29,822 nucleotides of DNA, from IMG/VR virus record IMGVR_UViG_3300037787_000004, positions 1-29,822 of that record; one strand, written 5' to 3'. This DNA comes from a virus (taxonomy: Duplodnaviria; Caudoviricetes). This document shows positions 128 through 29,315 of this stretch, piece by piece. Position 1 is the first letter of the stretch. The number at the start of each line of letters is the position of its first letter. Under the pieces are notes generated by a model. It had not been told where the DNA came from and ran no database searches. It was given only the letters and a program-made list of their open reading frames with translations. Position numbers and translations under genes: made by a program.

Positions 128-134
128 CTTTCAT
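1..134 (-). CDS. 5' part of the DnaA domain IV-like gene, crossing the circular junction
   Basis: ATG at 134 overlaps the exonuclease stop (ATGA, 131-134) and reads MKAVYTYSVEKVAPVAPEGKVEYSRP in frame into MQWYEF of ORF 29431..29751. Confidence 0.8.
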   Translation of the reverse strand, partial: MKAVYTYSVEKVAPVAPEGKVEYSRPMQWYEFRKVNPFDVLKVC

Positions 135-742
135 ATCGTCTTAATTAATTGTTTGATGTATTCCCGAGCGTTATTCACTCGTTGCTGAAGGTCCTCGATA
201 ACATACTGATTGTAACCTACCTCATAAACCTTTACGCGATGCTTAGCTTCAACTTGTGAGTAGTCGTAGTGAACGTGCGTTAGATCTTCGGGTGTTTCCA
301 TCAATACGTAAACTAACTCGGCCTTCTTTAATCCAGTCAAGTGCATATAAACCTGCAGCTGGTAATAGTAGTCCTTAGTCGGTATCTCATCCTCAAACAA
401 AGGGAAGGTAAAGCAATCCCAGCTGCTCTTGATATCCACCACCTTTTCGCGTGGGAAGATAACATCGGGTGTACCGGTGAAGAAATCATCCTCGTAGCTT
501 TCTTCGTTTTTAACTGCTAAATCCCAACCGAGCACCTTCTCTGCAAAGTTGATCGAATCCTGCTCCACCTCAATCCCTTTGGTAAGGTACTTGGAAGTGA
601 TAACTTGTCGCACTCCGTAAATCTGCTCCTTAGTCCACTCCTGAAGATAACTCTTAGTGGTTTCGGAAAGAACCTCCCCCTTTTTACGGGGGTTGGTCAT
701 TAATTTACCTGCGGCTGATGCTCTAATTTTGAACTCTTTCAT
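131..742 (-). CDS. YqaJ/lambda-exonuclease-like PD-(D/E)XK recombination nuclease
   Basis: GTPD..DIK catalytic motif, YYYQLQVYM motif, N-terminal RASA; adjacent to ERF. Confidence 0.85.
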   Translation of the reverse strand: MKEFKIRASAAGKLMTNPRKKGEVLSETTKSYLQEWTKEQIYGVRQVITSKYLTKGIEVEQDSINFAEKVLGWDLAVKNEESYEDDFFTGTPDVIFPREKVVDIKSSWDCFTFPLFEDEIPTKDYYYQLQVYMHLTGLKKAELVYVLMETPEDLTHVHYDYSQVEAKHRVKVYEVGYNQYVIEDLQQRVNNAREYIKQLIKTI

Positions 743-1302
743 TTTACTTGGTTTGCTTGGATTAGTAATGCTTCACGGTCTGCACCGGTGAGCTTGAATT
801 TACGATCGATTTGGTTAATGTTTACCGTATTATCTCGGAGTGCTAAGACTGCCTTCTGCCAAGTTGGAGTACCTGGTTTGAGCTCTTCTTTACTCGGTGC
901 GGGTTGGTTACGCTTCATTGCGCGTTCTCCATCGTCGTCGTTTTCTGCATTGAGTGATAATGCTGCGCTGATGGAATAACGCCTCGCATACGTAATGGCT
1001 GAACCCATCGCTTGTGGATCATTCTCCTTCGCAGCTACTAACTCCGTTCCGAGAATGGAAACGTACTGCCCTGATGAATGTACGAAGGTAGTAACGATGT
1101 GATTGTCGTGTACCGGTTGGAATACTGCTAAGCCGTGCTCCTGAAGAACGGGTTCTACCTCGTTGAGGATTGCAGAAAGATCTGCGTACTTGGATTTGAA
1201 AAAAGGGTTTTTACTTCCTTTGGTGATTGAGCCGATGTGACTCTTGGCTGCAACGAGTGCCTTCAAGACCTCGTCTGCATTGGGTGACTGTTGAATAAAC
1301 AT
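739..1302 (-). CDS. erf: ERF-family single-strand annealing protein
   Basis: NPFFKSKYADL and GSAITYARRY..DDDG signatures. Confidence 0.9.
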   Translation of the reverse strand: MFIQQSPNADEVLKALVAAKSHIGSITKGSKNPFFKSKYADLSAILNEVEPVLQEHGLAVFQPVHDNHIVTTFVHSSGQYVSILGTELVAAKENDPQAMGSAITYARRYSISAALSLNAENDDDGERAMKRNQPAPSKEELKPGTPTWQKAVLALRDNTVNINQIDRKFKLTGADREALLIQANQVK

Positions 1303-1305
1303 AAT

Positions 1306-1398
1306 TTAATGGTTTGATTGATTAGTAAACTTGTTGTCTGCATACTGCTGAAGTTTTGCCCAGCCGATGAATAGTGCGATGAAAAGTAGTGCGTTCAT
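1306..1398 (-). CDS. 30-aa small hydrophobic peptide, first ORF of the early operon (below ORF-track cutoff)
   Basis: MNALLFIALFIGWAKLQQYADNKFTNQSNH; lies between the TATATTTG promoter and erf and ends 3 nt before the erf start. Confidence 0.6.
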   Translation of the reverse strand: MNALLFIALFIGWAKLQQYADNKFTNQSNH

Positions 1399-1424
1399 GA
1401 TTGATTAGTTAATGATTACGTAGG

Positions 1425-1453
1425 CAAATATAACACTTATTCACAAACTACAA
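1425..1453 (-). promoter_or_regulatory. Bacteroidota-type early promoter with a DnaA box in the spacer
   Basis: TATATTTG at 1432-1425 matches TAnnTTTG; TTG 18 nt upstream; TTATTCACA at 1437-1445. Confidence 0.7.
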
Positions 1454-1485: not shown

Positions 1486-1514
1486 AAAAAAAGGCCCGAG
1501 AATCAACCCGAGCC
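1486..1514 (-). terminator. Intrinsic terminator after the lysis cassette
   Basis: GGCUCGGG-UUGAUU-CUCGGGCC stem with two G-U pairs on the minus strand, followed by U7. Confidence 0.85.
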
Positions 1515-1537
1515 ATACTAATCAACTAACAAACTAC
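1486..1537 (-). ncRNA. Candidate ~50-nt small RNA
   Basis: TATCTTTA (-7-like) at 1549-1542, a G/U-rich segment, then the terminator; complementary to early leaders (see findings). Confidence 0.35.
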
Positions 1538-1565
1538 TTCGTAAAGATACGGAATCTAACCCGTA

Positions 1566-2000
1566 CTACATCAAGATCGAAACTAAAAGTAACACCCCCA
1601 AACCAACGCCTCCGTAGATTATTGCGTTCTTGGTGGTATTGAGCCTACGTTCCAGGATTGCTACCTCCTCCCGACAAAAGTCATAGCGCTGAACCATATA
1701 ACCCTTCTGCAACTCTTGCAATTCGATTTGTTTATTGTAGTTCCCAGCTAACTTGCGGAAGTCGATCGCTTGTGCTTTGTAGTGAAGTAATAGCTTGTCT
1801 TGCGTCTGAATGATGCTATCTGCTATTAATAGGTCTTGATACCAAGTCCACACCGCCCGGAATTGCGTACCCGTTAGCGACGTATCTGTCTGCCCATATA
1901 CGGACTTGGTCAATAATGATATCAGTATTAACCATGTAATGTAAAGAATCCACACGTTGCCTTCGCGTTTTGAGGATTTCAAGTTCTGAATTAAGCGCAT
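1566..2000 (-). CDS. Lysis-cassette membrane protein, spanin-like partner
   Basis: Signal-peptide-like N-terminus (..SVYG-Q), coiled coil, C-terminal hydrophobic helix; overlaps the 3' end of the upstream spanin-like gene. Confidence 0.55.
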   Translation of the reverse strand: MRLIQNLKSSKREGNVWILYITWLILISLLTKSVYGQTDTSLTGTQFRAVWTWYQDLLIADSIIQTQDKLLLHYKAQAIDFRKLAGNYNKQIELQELQKGYMVQRYDFCREEVAILERRLNTTKNAIIYGGVGLGVLLLVSILM

Positions 2001-15157: not shown

Positions 15158-15184
15158 AAAAAAAGGGAGGACCGCAGCCCTCCC
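15158..15184 (-). terminator. Intrinsic terminator after the major capsid gene
   Basis: GGGAGGGC-UGCG-GUCCUCCC followed by U7. Confidence 0.9.
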
Positions 15185-15210
15185 CCTGATTACAACTAAT
15201 CAACCAATGC

Positions 15211-21794: not shown

Positions 21795-22019
21795 CTAACA
21801 AGCGCACTTATCCACGATCGGGTTGTACGTTATCTTGTATCGGTGAAATTCCTTTTCTATCTGGAATCCGTTTTTCTGAAGTAGATGAAAGTATCTGTAC
21901 ACGGTCCGTTGGCCTATTCCAATTTCCTCTGCTAACTTGGGAATGCTTATTGGCTCATTCATTAGGACCATCATTTGGATTAGTCTGTGCAGACTTCTTT
22001 GGTTGAACTGTTCACTCAT
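21795..22019 (-). CDS. Stand-alone winged HTH protein (HTH_11-like)
   Basis: RL..M..L...LAEEIGIGQRTVYRY...L...GF.I pattern, 74 aa. Confidence 0.8.
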   Translation of the reverse strand: MSEQFNQRSLHRLIQMMVLMNEPISIPKLAEEIGIGQRTVYRYFHLLQKNGFQIEKEFHRYKITYNPIVDKCAC

Positions 22020-22203
22020 CGAAGCTATCTCTTATATCCTTTAATGCTTGTAATTCGGCCTCCTTATCGAAGTCGTGCTCTGCATTCCTTATCCTGATGT
22101 AAACATCTCCACCGTTGCCTATGGTTAAGGTGAGGGTGAAGTCTTTCCATCGGTAAATGCACTTATCGTCTGCGATGGTTAATTTGCGGCCGGTTACCTT
22201 CAT
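22012..22203 (-). CDS. Hypothetical protein
   Basis: 63 aa, overlapping both neighbours in coupled fashion. Confidence 0.7.
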   Translation of the reverse strand: MKVTGRKLTIADDKCIYRWKDFTLTLTIGNGGDVYIRIRNAEHDFDKEAELQALKDIRDSFDE

Positions 22204-22358
22204 AACTTCTGCTTCACCACTTGGTCAAGTAAGTTTCGAACAACTGTTGATATAGGAACGCCTGTTTTGGCACTCCATGCGTTGTACTTTGCCTGTTGTT
22301 CCTCTGTTACTCTAATTACAAAGTTTTTGCTTTTGGGTTGCTTCTCTTTTGCTTCCAT
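22200..22358 (-). CDS. Ribbon-helix-helix (Arc/CopG-like) DNA-binding protein, not in the ORF track
   Basis: MEAKEKQPKSKNFVIRVTEEQQAKYNAWSAKTGVPISTVVRNLLDQVVKQKL; ATGA overlap with the next gene. Confidence 0.8.
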   Translation of the reverse strand: MEAKEKQPKSKNFVIRVTEEQQAKYNAWSAKTGVPISTVVRNLLDQVVKQKL

Positions 22359-23906: not shown

Positions 23907-24449
23907 TCAAATATCGGACTTTTTTTGCATTGCGTTACCCAGCATTCGATACTTGGCCTTCATCTCTTTGAGTTCCTCAATGGAATACTTCTTTATTTTG
24001 CCTCTCCTGGACTTTAACTGCTCAAACCTCTTATCCCCTATGCGAAGTGGTAATCGCTCCGTGTAGTCGATTAAATTGCCGTGTAGGTGCTGATTACATG
24101 CTACGCATTGGCCGTGTACGTTATCCGCATCGAATCTTAACTCTGGAGTGCTGCCTACTGAATAATAATGCCCTGCATCGTACTTGCCTACTAATGGCTT
24201 TCCGCAACTGATGCAAGGCTTATTCTTATCGCGTAGCCTGATGTAACGGTTGAACTGCGTCTGTACCTCCTTCAGCCAATCGGACTGCGTCTTGAGTGCA
24301 TCTCTGCGTTCCTTCTTCTCCTTATTCCACCGCTTTTTCTCTTGTTGCTTAGTGTACGCCATCGCGCAGATCGGACTGCATACCATTTGCGTCGTAGTGT
24401 ACTTAGGAGTGAAGGTGTTCTTGCAGATCTTACACTTCTTTGGTTTCAT
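23907..24449 (-). CDS. ninG: NinG/Rap-family recombination endonuclease
   Basis: CxxC..CS..C, FN.YIRLRD..CISCG..DAGHY..N.H.QC..CN motifs. Confidence 0.92.
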   Translation of the reverse strand: MKPKKCKICKNTFTPKYTTTQMVCSPICAMAYTKQQEKKRWNKEKKERRDALKTQSDWLKEVQTQFNRYIRLRDKNKPCISCGKPLVGKYDAGHYYSVGSTPELRFDADNVHGQCVACNQHLHGNLIDYTERLPLRIGDKRFEQLKSRRGKIKKYSIEELKEMKAKYRMLGNAMQKKSDI

Positions 24450-25332
24450 ATTGGCTTATTGCTTTGAATATCTGTAACGCTACTTGTGGTACTATTGCGT
24501 TTCCGTAGGCCTTGATGGATTCGTTTCTCCACTTAGAAAAGGTAATACCGTCCAGTTCCCTGGGAAGCCCATCATCTCCTCCACAAAGAGAGGGTTTAGA
24601 TGGAAACTTTTCGAAGTTTGATTGAGGTAATTTACCGCATCTCCTAAATTGTTGGTCATTGGATTTGCTCCTTTTCTCGGATTGGTTCCTTTCCGGCCTC
24701 CCTTCTCGCATTGTGCCGTTGGAGTTGGAAGCATCCCGTACTTCACTTGGCTCAATAGACTGCCGTACTTCGTGCCGTTCTTGTACCCGTTCTTCTCCGC
24801 TCTTGCTCTCATCTTCTCCGGACTCTCGTCGGTCATTACTGCCGTTGGAGTGAGCAACAAACCATATTCGATCTCTTCTGTGCGGTGCGTTGAGGCCTGC
24901 AGCTGGAAGTAGAAACGGCTGGACTTCGTACCCTTCAGTTTCCAGCTCAAGTTGCACCTCGTCGAATACCAACCCTCCATTCCAATTAACAAGGCCGCGA
25001 ACGTTTTCGCCCACAACCCATTGGGGTTTAATTTCTCGAATTGCTCTAAGCATTTCTGGCCATAAATGGCGTTCATCTTCTTTTCCTCTGCGTTTTCCTG
25101 CGCTGGAGTAGGGTTGGCAAGGGAATCCCCCTGTGAGGATATCGATGCTTCCTCTATGGCATCTAAAATCGATATTTGTAACATCTTCATAACTTATTGC
25201 GTTTGGCCAATAATGGTGTAAAACTCTTCGCCCGAATGGATTCCACTCGCAATGGAATATATTCTCCCACCCCATCCATTCTGCTGCAAGGTCGAATCCT
25301 CCGATTCCTGAAAATAAGCTTCCGTGTCTCAT
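24430..25332 (-). CDS. C5 cytosine DNA methyltransferase, alpha subunit
   Basis: Motif I LFSGIGG, IV GFPCQ, VI ENV, VIII HRRDR and X GNAIV; motif IX not found in this frame. Confidence 0.93.
   Translation of the reverse strand: MRHGSLFSGIGGFDLAAEWMGWENIFHCEWNPFGRRVLHHYWPNAISYEDVTNIDFRCHRGSIDILTGGFPCQPYSSAGKRRGKEDERHLWPEMLRAIREIKPQWVVGENVRGLVNWNGGLVFDEVQLELETEGYEVQPFLLPAAGLNAPHRRDRIWFVAHSNGSNDRRESGEDESKSGEERVQERHEVRQSIEPSEVRDASNSNGTMREGRPERNQSEKRSKSNDQQFRRCGKLPQSNFEKFPSKPSLCGGDDGLPRELDGITFSKWRNESIKAYGNAIVPQVALQIFKAISQYETKEV
24492..25190 (-). CDS. Overlapping alternative-frame methyltransferase beta subunit
   Basis: 232-aa nested ORF ending in motif IX-like LNPLFVEEMMGFPGNWT, with two L.TPTA repeats. 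Confidence 0.75.
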   Translation of the reverse strand: MKMLQISILDAIEEASISSQGDSLANPTPAQENAEEKKMNAIYGQKCLEQFEKLNPNGLWAKTFAALLIGMEGWYSTRCNLSWKLKGTKSSRFYFQLQASTHRTEEIEYGLLLTPTAVMTDESPEKMRARAEKNGYKNGTKYGSLLSQVKYGMLPTPTAQCEKGGRKGTNPRKGANPMTNNLGDAVNYLNQTSKSFHLNPLFVEEMMGFPGNWTVLPFLSGETNPSRPTETQ

Positions 25333-27032: not shown

Positions 27033-27319
27033 AACTCGATCTCTTCATTGATTACTGAATAGTGCAATTCGCTGGTCGTGTCGATGTCAAAGTATTGGTC
27101 ACCGATGTTAATCCGGGTGGTGCAGCTTTTAATCTCTACCTCGACCATTCCGATATCGTGGTCCTTTCTCCAATTCCACTTGGCTCGGGTTTCCAAGACT
27201 AATTTACCGTCGATATTGGCTCGAATGTAGGTCTCATCCTGCTGGTAGTGGTTTACGATGTGATTGGTTACGCGCTCCAACTCGGACTCGATAACCTCTT
27301 GAAAATAACTGTAATTCAT
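27029..27319 (-). CDS. Hypothetical protein
   Basis: 96 aa, first gene after a TATATTTG promoter. Confidence 0.7.
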   Translation of the reverse strand: MNYSYFQEVIESELERVTNHIVNHYQQDETYIRANIDGKLVLETRAKWNWRKDHDIGMVEVEIKSCTTRINIGDQYFDIDTTSELHYSVINEEIEL

Positions 27320-27342
27320 TGTAGTAAGTGTTGATTCGAAAA

Positions 27343-27350
27343 CAAATATA
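27343..27350 (-). promoter_or_regulatory. Bacteroidota-type -7 box (early-type promoter)
   Basis: TATATTTG in an AT-rich gap; upstream AAGTG shared with the 1425 promoter. Confidence 0.65.
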
Positions 27351-27369: not shown

Positions 27370-28662
27370 CTAAAAAGGTGCTGAATTTTTTTGCTCTTGG
27401 ATAACGTCGTCGGCATATCTGATTAACTCGGGAATCCAGCTTACCTTCATCTTACCCGTACTTCCTGCTCGGTTCTTAGCTATTATCCATTCACCCTTGC
27501 CTTCGGTATTCGAGCCGTCGTCGAACTCCATTAGTCCGTAATACTCTGGCCGGTGAAGAAAGCAAACCATATCGGCCTCTTGCTCTATTGAGCCTGATTC
27601 ACGAAGGTCTGATAGCATCGGTTGCTTATTTCCGCGCTCCTCTACCTTTCGGTTTAATTGGCTCAATGCGATTACCGTGCACTTGTGTTGCTTAGCAAGG
27701 TTTTTCATTGCCGTTGCAATCTCGTTAATCTCCTGCTCTCGCATATCCTTTGTACCTGATATCCTTTGAATGTAGTCCACCGCTATTAGGTCTATCTTGC
27801 GCTTTCCTGCTTCCACCTGGATTCGGTTCTGAATCTGCGGAAGGGTTACCGATTCATCAATGGTTAAGTTCCACTTCTCGATTAGTGCAGCTGCTTTGTT
27901 GATCTTAATCCACTCGTCTTGGCTCAATCTCTTGCGTCGCATCTGCTCGGAATCTATCTTGGTGAGTTGGATAATCATTCGGCCAATTAACTCCGATGCA
28001 GTCATCTCTGCACTTACTACGTGAACGGACTTGCCATCGTAGCAGGCTTGCATTACTTCTCCAATCATTGCGGCCGTCTTACCCATTGCTGGCCGTGCTG
28101 CGAAGATGATTAGCTGGCCGGGTTGATATCCTCCGGTGAACTTGGTCATCATCTCAATGCTGGACCTGATTCGGCTCGTGTCCGATTCTTGCAGTTGATC
28201 AATGAAGGTTTTTATCTGTGTAGTCGTGTCCTCAATTCGGTTGCCGTCTATCTGGACTGCCTCCTGGTAGTATTCGCCTACTTTTTTAAGTACAGTATCT
28301 ATTGGATCGGTAAGGTTTATCGTCTTTATCTTGAGTGCTAACATCTCAATGTTTCGCTTCATCTCCATCTCCAGCAGTTGCGTAACGTAATATTCGATGC
28401 GCTCATTAGCTACCTTTTCCTGAAGGGTGAGTAACATTACGGACCAACCCTCTTCCGGTGGTGTTTCGGTTTTTAGTTCGTGATCGAGTGCGAATACGTC
28501 GATTGTACCTTTGTTGGATAACCGTTGCATTGCTCTCCATATCTTGCGATGTGGTTCGAAGTAGAAACTGGTTTCTCGAATCATTGATGCATATTGGAAG
28601 TAAAGCTGGTTCCAGATGATGAACCTGCCCAGTACGCCTTCTTCGATGGTCTTGTCGTTCAT
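27370..28662 (-). CDS. dnaB: Replicative DnaB-type helicase
   Basis: AARPAMGKT, SAEM, VDYIQ, LSQLNR, SDLRESGSIEQEAD and IAKNR.G motifs. Confidence 0.97.
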   Translation of the reverse strand: MNDKTIEEGVLGRFIIWNQLYFQYASMIRETSFYFEPHRKIWRAMQRLSNKGTIDVFALDHELKTETPPEEGWSVMLLTLQEKVANERIEYYVTQLLEMEMKRNIEMLALKIKTINLTDPIDTVLKKVGEYYQEAVQIDGNRIEDTTTQIKTFIDQLQESDTSRIRSSIEMMTKFTGGYQPGQLIIFAARPAMGKTAAMIGEVMQACYDGKSVHVVSAEMTASELIGRMIIQLTKIDSEQMRRKRLSQDEWIKINKAAALIEKWNLTIDESVTLPQIQNRIQVEAGKRKIDLIAVDYIQRISGTKDMREQEINEIATAMKNLAKQHKCTVIALSQLNRKVEERGNKQPMLSDLRESGSIEQEADMVCFLHRPEYYGLMEFDDGSNTEGKGEWIIAKNRAGSTGKMKVSWIPELIRYADDVIQEQKNSAPF

Positions 28663-29315
28663 AAGTTGATTGATTGGTAGTTGTTAGTTTTGGTGGGTAA
28701 TTTACTAAATTGATTCCGATCGTCGTTGCGTAGCCAATTACTCAATGCGCTTTTGTAGTTCTTGTACTTCTTGTTCTTAGCTTGGCAATAGTCCACTAAC
28801 GTATCGAAGGCCTTGCCGATGTCCTTATCCTTGAACTTCGGCTCGAGTTCGCGGATCACTCTCTCCCTTTCCTGAATGAAGTTGTTTAAGGTGTTATATA
28901 TATTAGTTTCTTTATTACTATCTATATTATTATTATAGTGTAAACTTTGTTTACTATCATCGTGTAAACTTTGTTTACTATCGGTGTAAACTTTCTTTAC
29001 AGGGTGTAAACTTTGTTTACTATCCTCATTTAGCTTCTCAACGGTATCATACCACAAGGTCGTGGACCGAAGATAGCTGGTGTTCTCGTCTTTTTCAATA
29101 AGGCCCTTTTCAATCAAACGATTAATAATCTTATGGACCGCGATTCGTGAAATGTTTAATGTATCTGCAAACCATTGCTTCGATGCGTAGCACCATCCTG
29201 GAATGTTACTTCCGTTATAAGCACTCAGCCTATAAACCATTGAAGCTACTATGTATTCATTGGTGCTGATGTCGAGCTTCTTCTGCTCCTCGTGAAAAAT
29301 TGTGGTGTATCTCAT
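28659..29315 (-). CDS. Phage replication initiator (lambda O-like) with N-terminal winged HTH
   Basis: WCYAS...A..L.IS...V...I..L..KGLI; internal iterons; coupled to dnaB; start moved to ATG 29315 because the upstream extension spans a terminator hairpin. Confidence 0.85.
   Translation of the reverse strand: MRYTTIFHEEQKKLDISTNEYIVASMVYRLSAYNGSNIPGWCYASKQWFADTLNISRIAVHKIINRLIEKGLIEKDENTSYLRSTTLWYDTVEKLNEDSKQSLHPVKKVYTDSKQSLHDDSKQSLHYNNNIDSNKETNIYNTLNNFIQERERVIRELEPKFKDKDIGKAFDTLVDYCQAKNKKYKNYKSALSNWLRNDDRNQFSKLPTKTNNYQSINL
28890..29024. repeat. Replication origin: four iterons plus an AT-rich tract
   Basis: GTGTAAACTTTGTTTACTATC at 28938, 28962 and 29004, variant at 28984; AT-rich 28890-28937. 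Confidence 0.88.

Follow-up and report, generated by a model that had tools for sequence, protein, structure and literature searches.

Conserved G/U-rich tracts before late-gene terminators of a Bacteroidota-type phage complement the leaders of its first early genes and may seed late antisense RNAs

The window, by which we mean the whole 29,822-nt stretch of viral DNA analysed here, contains a complete circular phage genome of 29,695 bp together with a 127-bp terminal repeat. All annotatable genes lie on the minus strand. PHROG matches identify a siphovirus-type late block running from terminase to tail, with holin/endolysin and metallophosphoesterase, after which come erf, an exonuclease, a replication initiator, dnaB, ninB, ssb, a methyltransferase, and ninG. 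The host is likely to be a member of the Bacteroidota, since TAnnTTTG boxes precede the operon starts in the window, the exonuclease relatives located within genome contigs all fall in Bacteroidota bins (7 out of 7), and the best cultured relatives are the Nonlabens phages P12024L/S. A search of cultured phages with dnaB returned distant matches only. Scanning 51 ORFs, about a third of which have no family, we found neither an integrase nor an antirepressor or CI-like repressor family. The first-pass annotation had described the phage as having no visible repressor, which is too strong: small DNA-binding proteins of the HTH_11 (21795-22019) and RHH_3 (22200-22358) families are encoded, as is a DnaA-type HTH. 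A search of Rfam 15 at E ≤ 5 assigns no family to the window, its only matches being two chance snoRNA ones elsewhere, and a scan of seven related loci gives none either.

The replication-initiator gene contains three to four copies of a motif of ~20 nt (29032-28936, minus strand), which are iteron-like and probably mark the origin. The methyltransferase gene (24430-25332) is overlapped in another frame by a 232-aa ORF (24492-25190) that also matches a methyltransferase PHROG family.

At the boundary between the late and early genes, a hairpin, a -7-like box, a G/U-rich anti-leader tract (E1), and a predicted intrinsic terminator follow one another behind the last late ORF, and a predicted early promoter box separates them from the first early gene, orf30, which encodes a hydrophobic 30-aa peptide (Table 1). 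The tract and terminator form a real and conserved block. All strings reported for this region by the first-pass annotation lie on the minus strand where it had placed them. The loop of the upstream hairpin resembles both the terminator loop and the seed.

Table 1. Coordinates of the tracts, terminators, promoter boxes, and candidate target leaders in the window
Feature	Position	Strand	Remarks
Last late/lysis-block ORF	1566..2000	minus	144 aa, no family match
TAnnTTTG box of the 144-aa late ORF	2030-2023	minus	
Upstream hairpin	1548..1565	minus	Right behind stop of 144-aa ORF; 0 variable sites in four haplotypes
-7-like box TATCTTTA	1542..1549	minus	Last base off TAnnTTTG consensus
E1, G/U-rich anti-leader tract	1515..1537	minus	One variable site, 1529
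E1 core GTTGATTAGT	1526-1517	minus	Invariant; complements orf30, erf, and exo leaders
9-mer TTGATTAGT of E1	1525-1517	minus	
Predicted intrinsic terminator	1486..1514	minus	Stem 1514-1493, loop 1506-1501, seven U; base 1504 polymorphic
Predicted early promoter box TATATTTG	1425..1432	minus	Between E1 and first target
orf30 and leader	1306..1420	minus	ORF 1398-1306; core site ACTAATCAA at 1409-1401
erf and leader site	739..1327	minus	Gene 1302-739; site 1327-1318 inside orf30, 10-nt exact match; ACTAATCAA at 1326-1318
Exonuclease (exo) and leader site	131..767	minus	Gene 742-131; site 767-760 inside erf, 8-nt exact match; ACTAATC at 766-760
dnaB leader (weak target)	28662..28689	minus	9-nt exact match to E1; AACTAACAACTAC at 28689-28677, one bulge against E1 tract; AATCAAC at 28671-28665
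Leader of 96-aa (27319) gene (possible weak target)	27319..27337	minus	7-nt match to E1/E2; GAATCAAC at 27337-27330; second early-type promoter at 27350
E2, G/U-rich tract in major capsid gene 3′ UTR	15187..15210	minus	Core GTTGATTAGT at 15204-15195
Predicted intrinsic terminator behind E2	15158..15184	minus	

An RNA containing E1 could arise in two ways. The box TATCTTTA is indeed present, as had been claimed, but its last consensus base is off and the nearest TTG upstream is 22 nt away. With the -7 box taken to lie at -12 to -5 (PMC9723704), transcription would start at G1537 and yield a 52-nt RNA (1537-1486). Because the box departs from consensus, the RNA could equally well come from the 3′ end of the last late mRNA, and since the 144-aa ORF has a box of its own, a short transcript could end at the E1 terminator. 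One RNA-library contig spans 1435-1571, though it may derive from DNA. The hairpin and its TATCTTT box (1565-1542) resemble a hairpin and TATCTTTG box ahead of the last late gene of a sister phage (L117:8990-9020), hinting at a promoter-type module. As a general mark of late promoters the inverted repeat was rejected: it occurs at E1 and at the sister's last late gene and is absent at the window's terS and 2030 boxes.

The core recurs in a second place. We scored all 29,695 coding-strand windows of 25 nt for complementarity to the leaders, which allows for the place having been chosen beforehand; E1 ties for the top score with two others, and 0.08% of the windows reach it. The next match, newly found here, is a second tract (E2) that adjoins the stop codon of the capsid gene and is followed by a hairpin and U run. 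E1 and E2 share the 10-mer GTTGATTAGT, an overlap equalled in seven of 5000 shuffles and in eight of 467 cross-cluster pairs of G/U-rich tracts, and TTGATTAG has exactly two coding-strand occurrences, both just before a terminator. The E2 terminator shows a two-sided stem change in five of 10 sequences; the tract itself is identical in all 10, but its flanks vary little (nine sites in ~300 nt). E2 can fold on itself into a small hairpin, the core being 31% unpaired in the form tested. A TAnnTTTG match (15253-15246) precedes E2 inside the capsid gene.

The window has a third terminator-like unit, before the replication-initiator gene (29415-29325, minus strand; ATG at 29315). Within it, an 8-nt segment at ~29403-29396 complements the loop of a GC-rich hairpin (29361-29332), and segment and loop change together in a relative (L429/L096). 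Its sequence suggests that the replication gene has here a leader of the pseudoknot or attenuator type.

The exact complementarity of E1 to the orf30, erf, and exonuclease leaders, put forward in the first-pass annotation, is confirmed and proves longer than described at erf (10 nt) and at exo (8 nt). Both tracts rank orf30 first among 45 leaders in the window (-20.4 kcal/mol for E1 and -17.0 for E2). Accessibility-aware co-folding also places orf30 first with the 52-nt form (-15.7) and with E2 (-13.2), while ssb ranks above it for an 80-nt form. The predicted pairing of E1 with orf30 runs across the AUG to about +15 to +17, and that of E2 is a 14-bp helix that includes G-U pairs. Some late genes come near the top in duplex energy as well, namely the metallophosphoesterase (-18.3/-14.9) and the 2211 gene (-20.1). 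The annotated pairing with dnaB does exist as a string with one bulge, but dnaB is not a conserved target (see below). A further pairing had been assigned to the terminator loop. We drop it: only UUGAUU is free, the flanking G and C belonging to the stem, and the common polymorphism at base 1504 breaks the match. The supported targets are thus, on predicted pairing, the first genes of the early operon (the first gene, erf, and exo).

The matches exceed chance. The first-pass annotation had suggested a comparison with shuffles, and this favours the tract: judged on the five early leaders that score best (erf, orf30, dnaB, the 27319 gene, and exo), only two to three of 400 shuffled seeds do as well as the real one. 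Accessibility-aware co-folding gives a borderline result, 3 of 60 shuffles equalling the real seed. A reversed-seed control is uninformative for E1 and E2, because the core reads identically backwards. The comparison with late leaders, also suggested at first pass, splits. Overall pairing energy does not differ between early and late leaders (P = 0.30; P = 0.36-0.38 with accessibility-aware co-folding), but exact matches of at least 7 nt favour early ones, both for E1 (6 of 21 early vs. 1 of 24 late leaders; P = 0.03, rank test P = 0.13; an overlapping window, 1554-1530, has such matches in 8 of 24 late leaders) and for E2 (7 of 21 vs. 1 of 24, P = 0.014). An initial concern had been that A/C-rich leaders would inflate matches to a G/U-rich RNA. 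E1 fits the phage's own leaders better than those of other phages (z = 3.6, P = 0.005), and the target 9-mer is no generic leader word, as it occurs in only four of 3594 leaders of other phage clusters and in one of 371 host leaders.

We also ran two pattern scans. The exact seed pattern returned 11 loci, comprising six close relatives and five unrelated chance or reverse-strand-leader matches. A promoter plus anti-AUG pattern returned 120 loci, only 12 with a terminator behind, mostly opposite-strand gene starts, and proved of little use. Four units (L269, L301, L333, and L344) combine promoter box, anti-AUG tract, and terminator; read on the opposite strand, they encode what resembles the initial 17-27 codons of a gene, in the manner of inverted gene starts.

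The block at the late/early boundary changes little. Across four haplotypes, 2 of 80 sites vary in 1565-1486, whereas the stretch upstream varies at 31 of its 144 third codon positions and the downstream spacer at 11 of 37 sites (P < 1e-4); for the seed alone the figure is 1 of 27 (P = 0.019 and 0.008). The assembled contigs of four public runs, which speak to variants only and not to RNA start, end, or strand (two of the runs hold <0.1 of the words), carry no changes in 1505-1571, against nine in 1449-1479 and 10 in 1572-1650.

The erf site is unchanged in all seven loci that hold it and the exo site in all eight, although both lie within coding DNA. In five of seven related loci, the first position is taken by an inserted gene, and the match (10 or 8 nt) is now found in the leader of that gene and no longer in that of orf30, while orf30 and E1 persist. 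The dnaB leader, on the other hand, has been rewritten in three of the seven. With sites kept or the match moved to the new first gene, the constant targets are the first gene, erf, and exo. The expected covariation between RNA and targets is not seen: core and targets are invariant among close relatives, and no compensatory change appears there.

The first slot of the early operon (1425-1398; L001, L429, and run X3) is a swap site, where at least four leaders or genes stand behind the same promoter box, all retaining TAATCAA. One sister group, with a capsid 63% identical, has no E1, its late/early junction lacking both terminator and tract. The tract of its capsid gene complements the first early leader in one allele and not in the other, and the energy test shows no self preference in this group. 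No sequence orthologue of E1 was seen among exonuclease relatives at 43-66% identity.

We asked whether tracts before terminators match their own genome's leaders in other phages. From 380 loci of at least 4 kb, 261 with Bacteroidota-type signals were retained, falling into 79 clusters, with genes and terminators called by our own heuristics; each pre-terminator tract was compared between its own leaders and equal-sized draws from other clusters. Of 131 phage tracts, 32 from 20 clusters are G/U-rich (G+T ≥ 0.64, a cut-off set after examples had been seen). These match their own leaders better than those of others, with 17 of 20 clusters positive (P = 0.0008). The remaining 99 tracts show no such signal (seven at P < 0.05; P = 0.36). 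The signal persists without the window's own cluster (27 tracts, P = 0.0017), with GC-matched draws (P = 0.005), and without tracts in which a long opposite-strand ORF starts (23 tracts, P = 0.005), and it is gone when tracts are shuffled (P = 0.21). Individually, 13 of the 32 reach P < 0.05 and 19 have no significant self-match.

In this test, E1 and E2 have z-scores of 3.6 and 3.0. G/U-rich DNA lies upstream of each of the window's three coding-strand terminators, the tract before the replication gene showing no self-match to leaders (z = -1.0). As a host control, 400 kb of one Flavobacteriaceae genome contains no G/U-rich tract among 27 before terminators, the DNA there being A-rich. In other phages the tracts lie behind endolysin or holin genes in four of nine annotated cases, and the best targets, kilobases up- or downstream, include Erf/Sak and primase-helicase genes, erf targets being favoured by the manner in which loci were collected. 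A promoter lies upstream of nine of the 32 G/U-rich tracts and of 46 of the 99 others, so that stand-alone transcription as a rule is without support.

Among these units, the cultured Nonlabens phage P12024L has, behind its holin gene, a TATATTTG box, a G/U tract, and a terminator (L257:9810-9900); gp25 and gp31, the genes whose leaders this tract matches (z = 3.4), each come directly after a promoter box. In another (L144:8590-8660, also L142 and L145), the arrangement of late end, terminator, and early promoter is like that of the window, with two exact 16-nt complements to early starts of the phage itself, those of erf and of a 51-aa gene, in which the AUG is included; on the opposite strand, the same interval contains the start of a 45-codon ORF.

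We infer from these data that E1 and E2 are transcribed, pair, and act as RNA. Specifically, the tracts would be the exposed seed segments of RNAs made late, binding the first early leaders in trans and blocking their translation, a reading that we place just on the probable side. The RNA would be either the 52-nt product of the TATCTTTA box or the tail of the last late mRNA, and E2 would add the same seed from the capsid mRNA. Capsid mRNA is usually the most abundant late mRNA, and Bacteroidota start translation without Shine-Dalgarno pairing. Adenines at -3, -6, -12, and -13, together with low structure, are described as determinants of initiation in this phylum (PMC6847099). The duplex would cover the A-rich region from -14 to +1 that Bacteroidota ribosomes use in place of a Shine-Dalgarno sequence, and translation of the early and recombination genes would be wound down late in infection. 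Where a transcript occasionally reads through the terminator, E1 would in addition mask the first gene in cis. This keeps the core of the first-pass proposal, a multi-target RNA shutting off early genes, to which the second copy, the conservation, the rare target motif, and the class test lend weight, and it gives up the dnaB and loop pairings.

The alternative to be taken most seriously, although we consider it unlikely, is that complementarity is a by-product or that the tract works single-stranded: E1 would be an inverted copy of a repeated leader, or a G/U element serving termination, stability, or protein binding. Early leaders share one motif, so a single inverted copy yields several matches, and the same string elsewhere is the reverse strand of ordinary leaders (L087 and L088). 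The G/U-rich DNA before all three terminators, the third without self-match, also fits this explanation, as do the lack of an overall energy difference between early and late leaders and the hairpin that E2 forms by itself. It sits poorly, however, with two independent inverted copies each placed directly before a terminator, with the strong conservation of E1, and with a target motif that is rare among other leaders. The self-over-other signal in unrelated clusters of differing sequence, and host terminators without such tracts, also count against it.

Masking in cis alone, in which E1 folds onto the first early leader only in late read-through transcripts, strikes us as distinctly improbable. 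The layout itself would suit it: with the early promoter placed downstream of E1 and upstream of the orf30 leader, transcripts from this promoter lack the tract; in the predicted fold of 1570-1380, E1 and the orf30 start are paired (~16 bp expected); the match follows whichever gene comes first; and phage T4 offers a precedent (PMC3014915). Against it, E2 lies 13.8 kb from the targets without a match to its own next gene, so that a cis-only model has no use for it. Moreover, the best targets in other phages are kilobases away or upstream, and a predicted terminator stands between E1 and its target.

That the motif is a DNA operator, with TAATCA/TGATTA half-sites bound by a small phage HTH or RHH protein, is very improbable. 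Two TAATCA repeats do lie behind the early promoter, E2 has an inverted pair of half-sites, and HTH_11 and RHH_3 proteins are encoded; but the number and spacing of repeats vary among haplotypes, the erf and exo sites have no adjacent promoter, the orientation is always antisense before terminators and sense in leaders, and TAATCA occurs 21 times on the coding strand. Still less credence goes to RNA immunity of the P1 c4 or P4 CI type silencing a prophage, which the first-pass annotation had entertained. The antisense direction toward the start of the early operon and the absence of a CI-like repressor family among the scanned ORFs would agree with it, yet against it count the lack of an integrase among the 51 ORFs, the genes all on one strand with no divergent immunity region, the lack of an Rfam match or of an antirepressor target, and the position of both tracts at late-gene ends. 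Least probable of all is a pair of the type I toxin-antitoxin kind in which the RNA keeps the orf30 peptide untranslated: orf30 is short, hydrophobic, and the top predicted target, with pairing that spans the AUG, but five of seven related loci lose its leader match while orf30 and E1 remain, and the peptide has no Pfam or PHROG match and only Atlas leads below 0.8.

Trans-acting late RNAs might extend beyond this phage. A general RNA timer in Bacteroidota phages is a tentative idea, which we hold to be short of probable: the 3′ tails of late mRNAs (capsid and lysis) would carry a genome-specific anti-leader code, a matching word would tag the phage's own early leaders, and late transcription would in this way silence early translation without a repressor protein. 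Little is known of the means by which small lytic phages that lack a dedicated repressor or nuclease bring early expression to an end. If the idea is true, early translation would be under feedback from the 3′ ends of late mRNAs by way of a self-specific seed, and as cultured P12024L carries a self-matching unit of promoter, tract, and terminator, it can be tested at the bench in a harmless marine host. A search of the openly accessible literature, at the level of titles and abstracts, turned up no comparable sRNA described from a Bacteroidota phage.

Known systems resemble the proposed one in part. In T4, the start regions of genes e, soc, 49, and I-TevI are sequestered intramolecularly in early transcripts (PMC3014915). 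Here, too, a promoter lies between the anti-start strand and its target, and a predicted fold exists, for E1 but not for E2; unlike T4, the direction is reversed (late onto early), E1 is separated from its target by a terminator, and there is a second copy far away. The T4 nuclease RegB, a protein that inactivates early mRNAs at start regions and is proposed there to free ribosomes (PMC3014915), is alike in purpose, early messages being shut off at their start regions, but the agent here would be RNA. P4 CI RNA is a phage RNA that pairs around a ribosome-binding region of the phage's own mRNA, as the element in the window is predicted to do. The c4 of P1/P7, an antisense RNA controlling antirepressor and immunity, is comparable as a phage RNA pairing around the ribosome-binding region of its own mRNA, as predicted here. 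Its pairing segments are described as lying in the loops of a structured RNA (PMC12197685), whereas the seed in the window is a linear tract before a terminator; in further contrast to c4, the loop match is unconserved, no sign of lysogeny was found, and no c4-type model matches.

The closest parallel is with FopS/GibS of Bacteroides thetaiotaomicron. These are RNAs of ~65-70 nt, terminator-ended and in several copies, one of them 3′ UTR-derived; they block initiation by means of a 5′ seed that base-pairs close to a start codon, which as a rule is that of the leading gene in a polycistron (PMC11697453). The unit in the window is likewise short and terminator-ended, with a 5′ seed predicted to complement the start of an operon's first gene. 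The canonical FopS promoter is TAnnTTTG, from which the E1 box differs in its last base, while E2 has a match inside the capsid gene. FopS/GibS are bacterial, aimed at glycan-transport operons, and antagonised by RbpB (PMC11697453); the window element is phage-encoded, predicted to act on the phage's own early genes, has no Rfam family match (R1/R1′ seed model), and bears a seed that differs from phage to phage. Our best reading, by analogy, is that the element would work like FopS without being a member of the FopS family.
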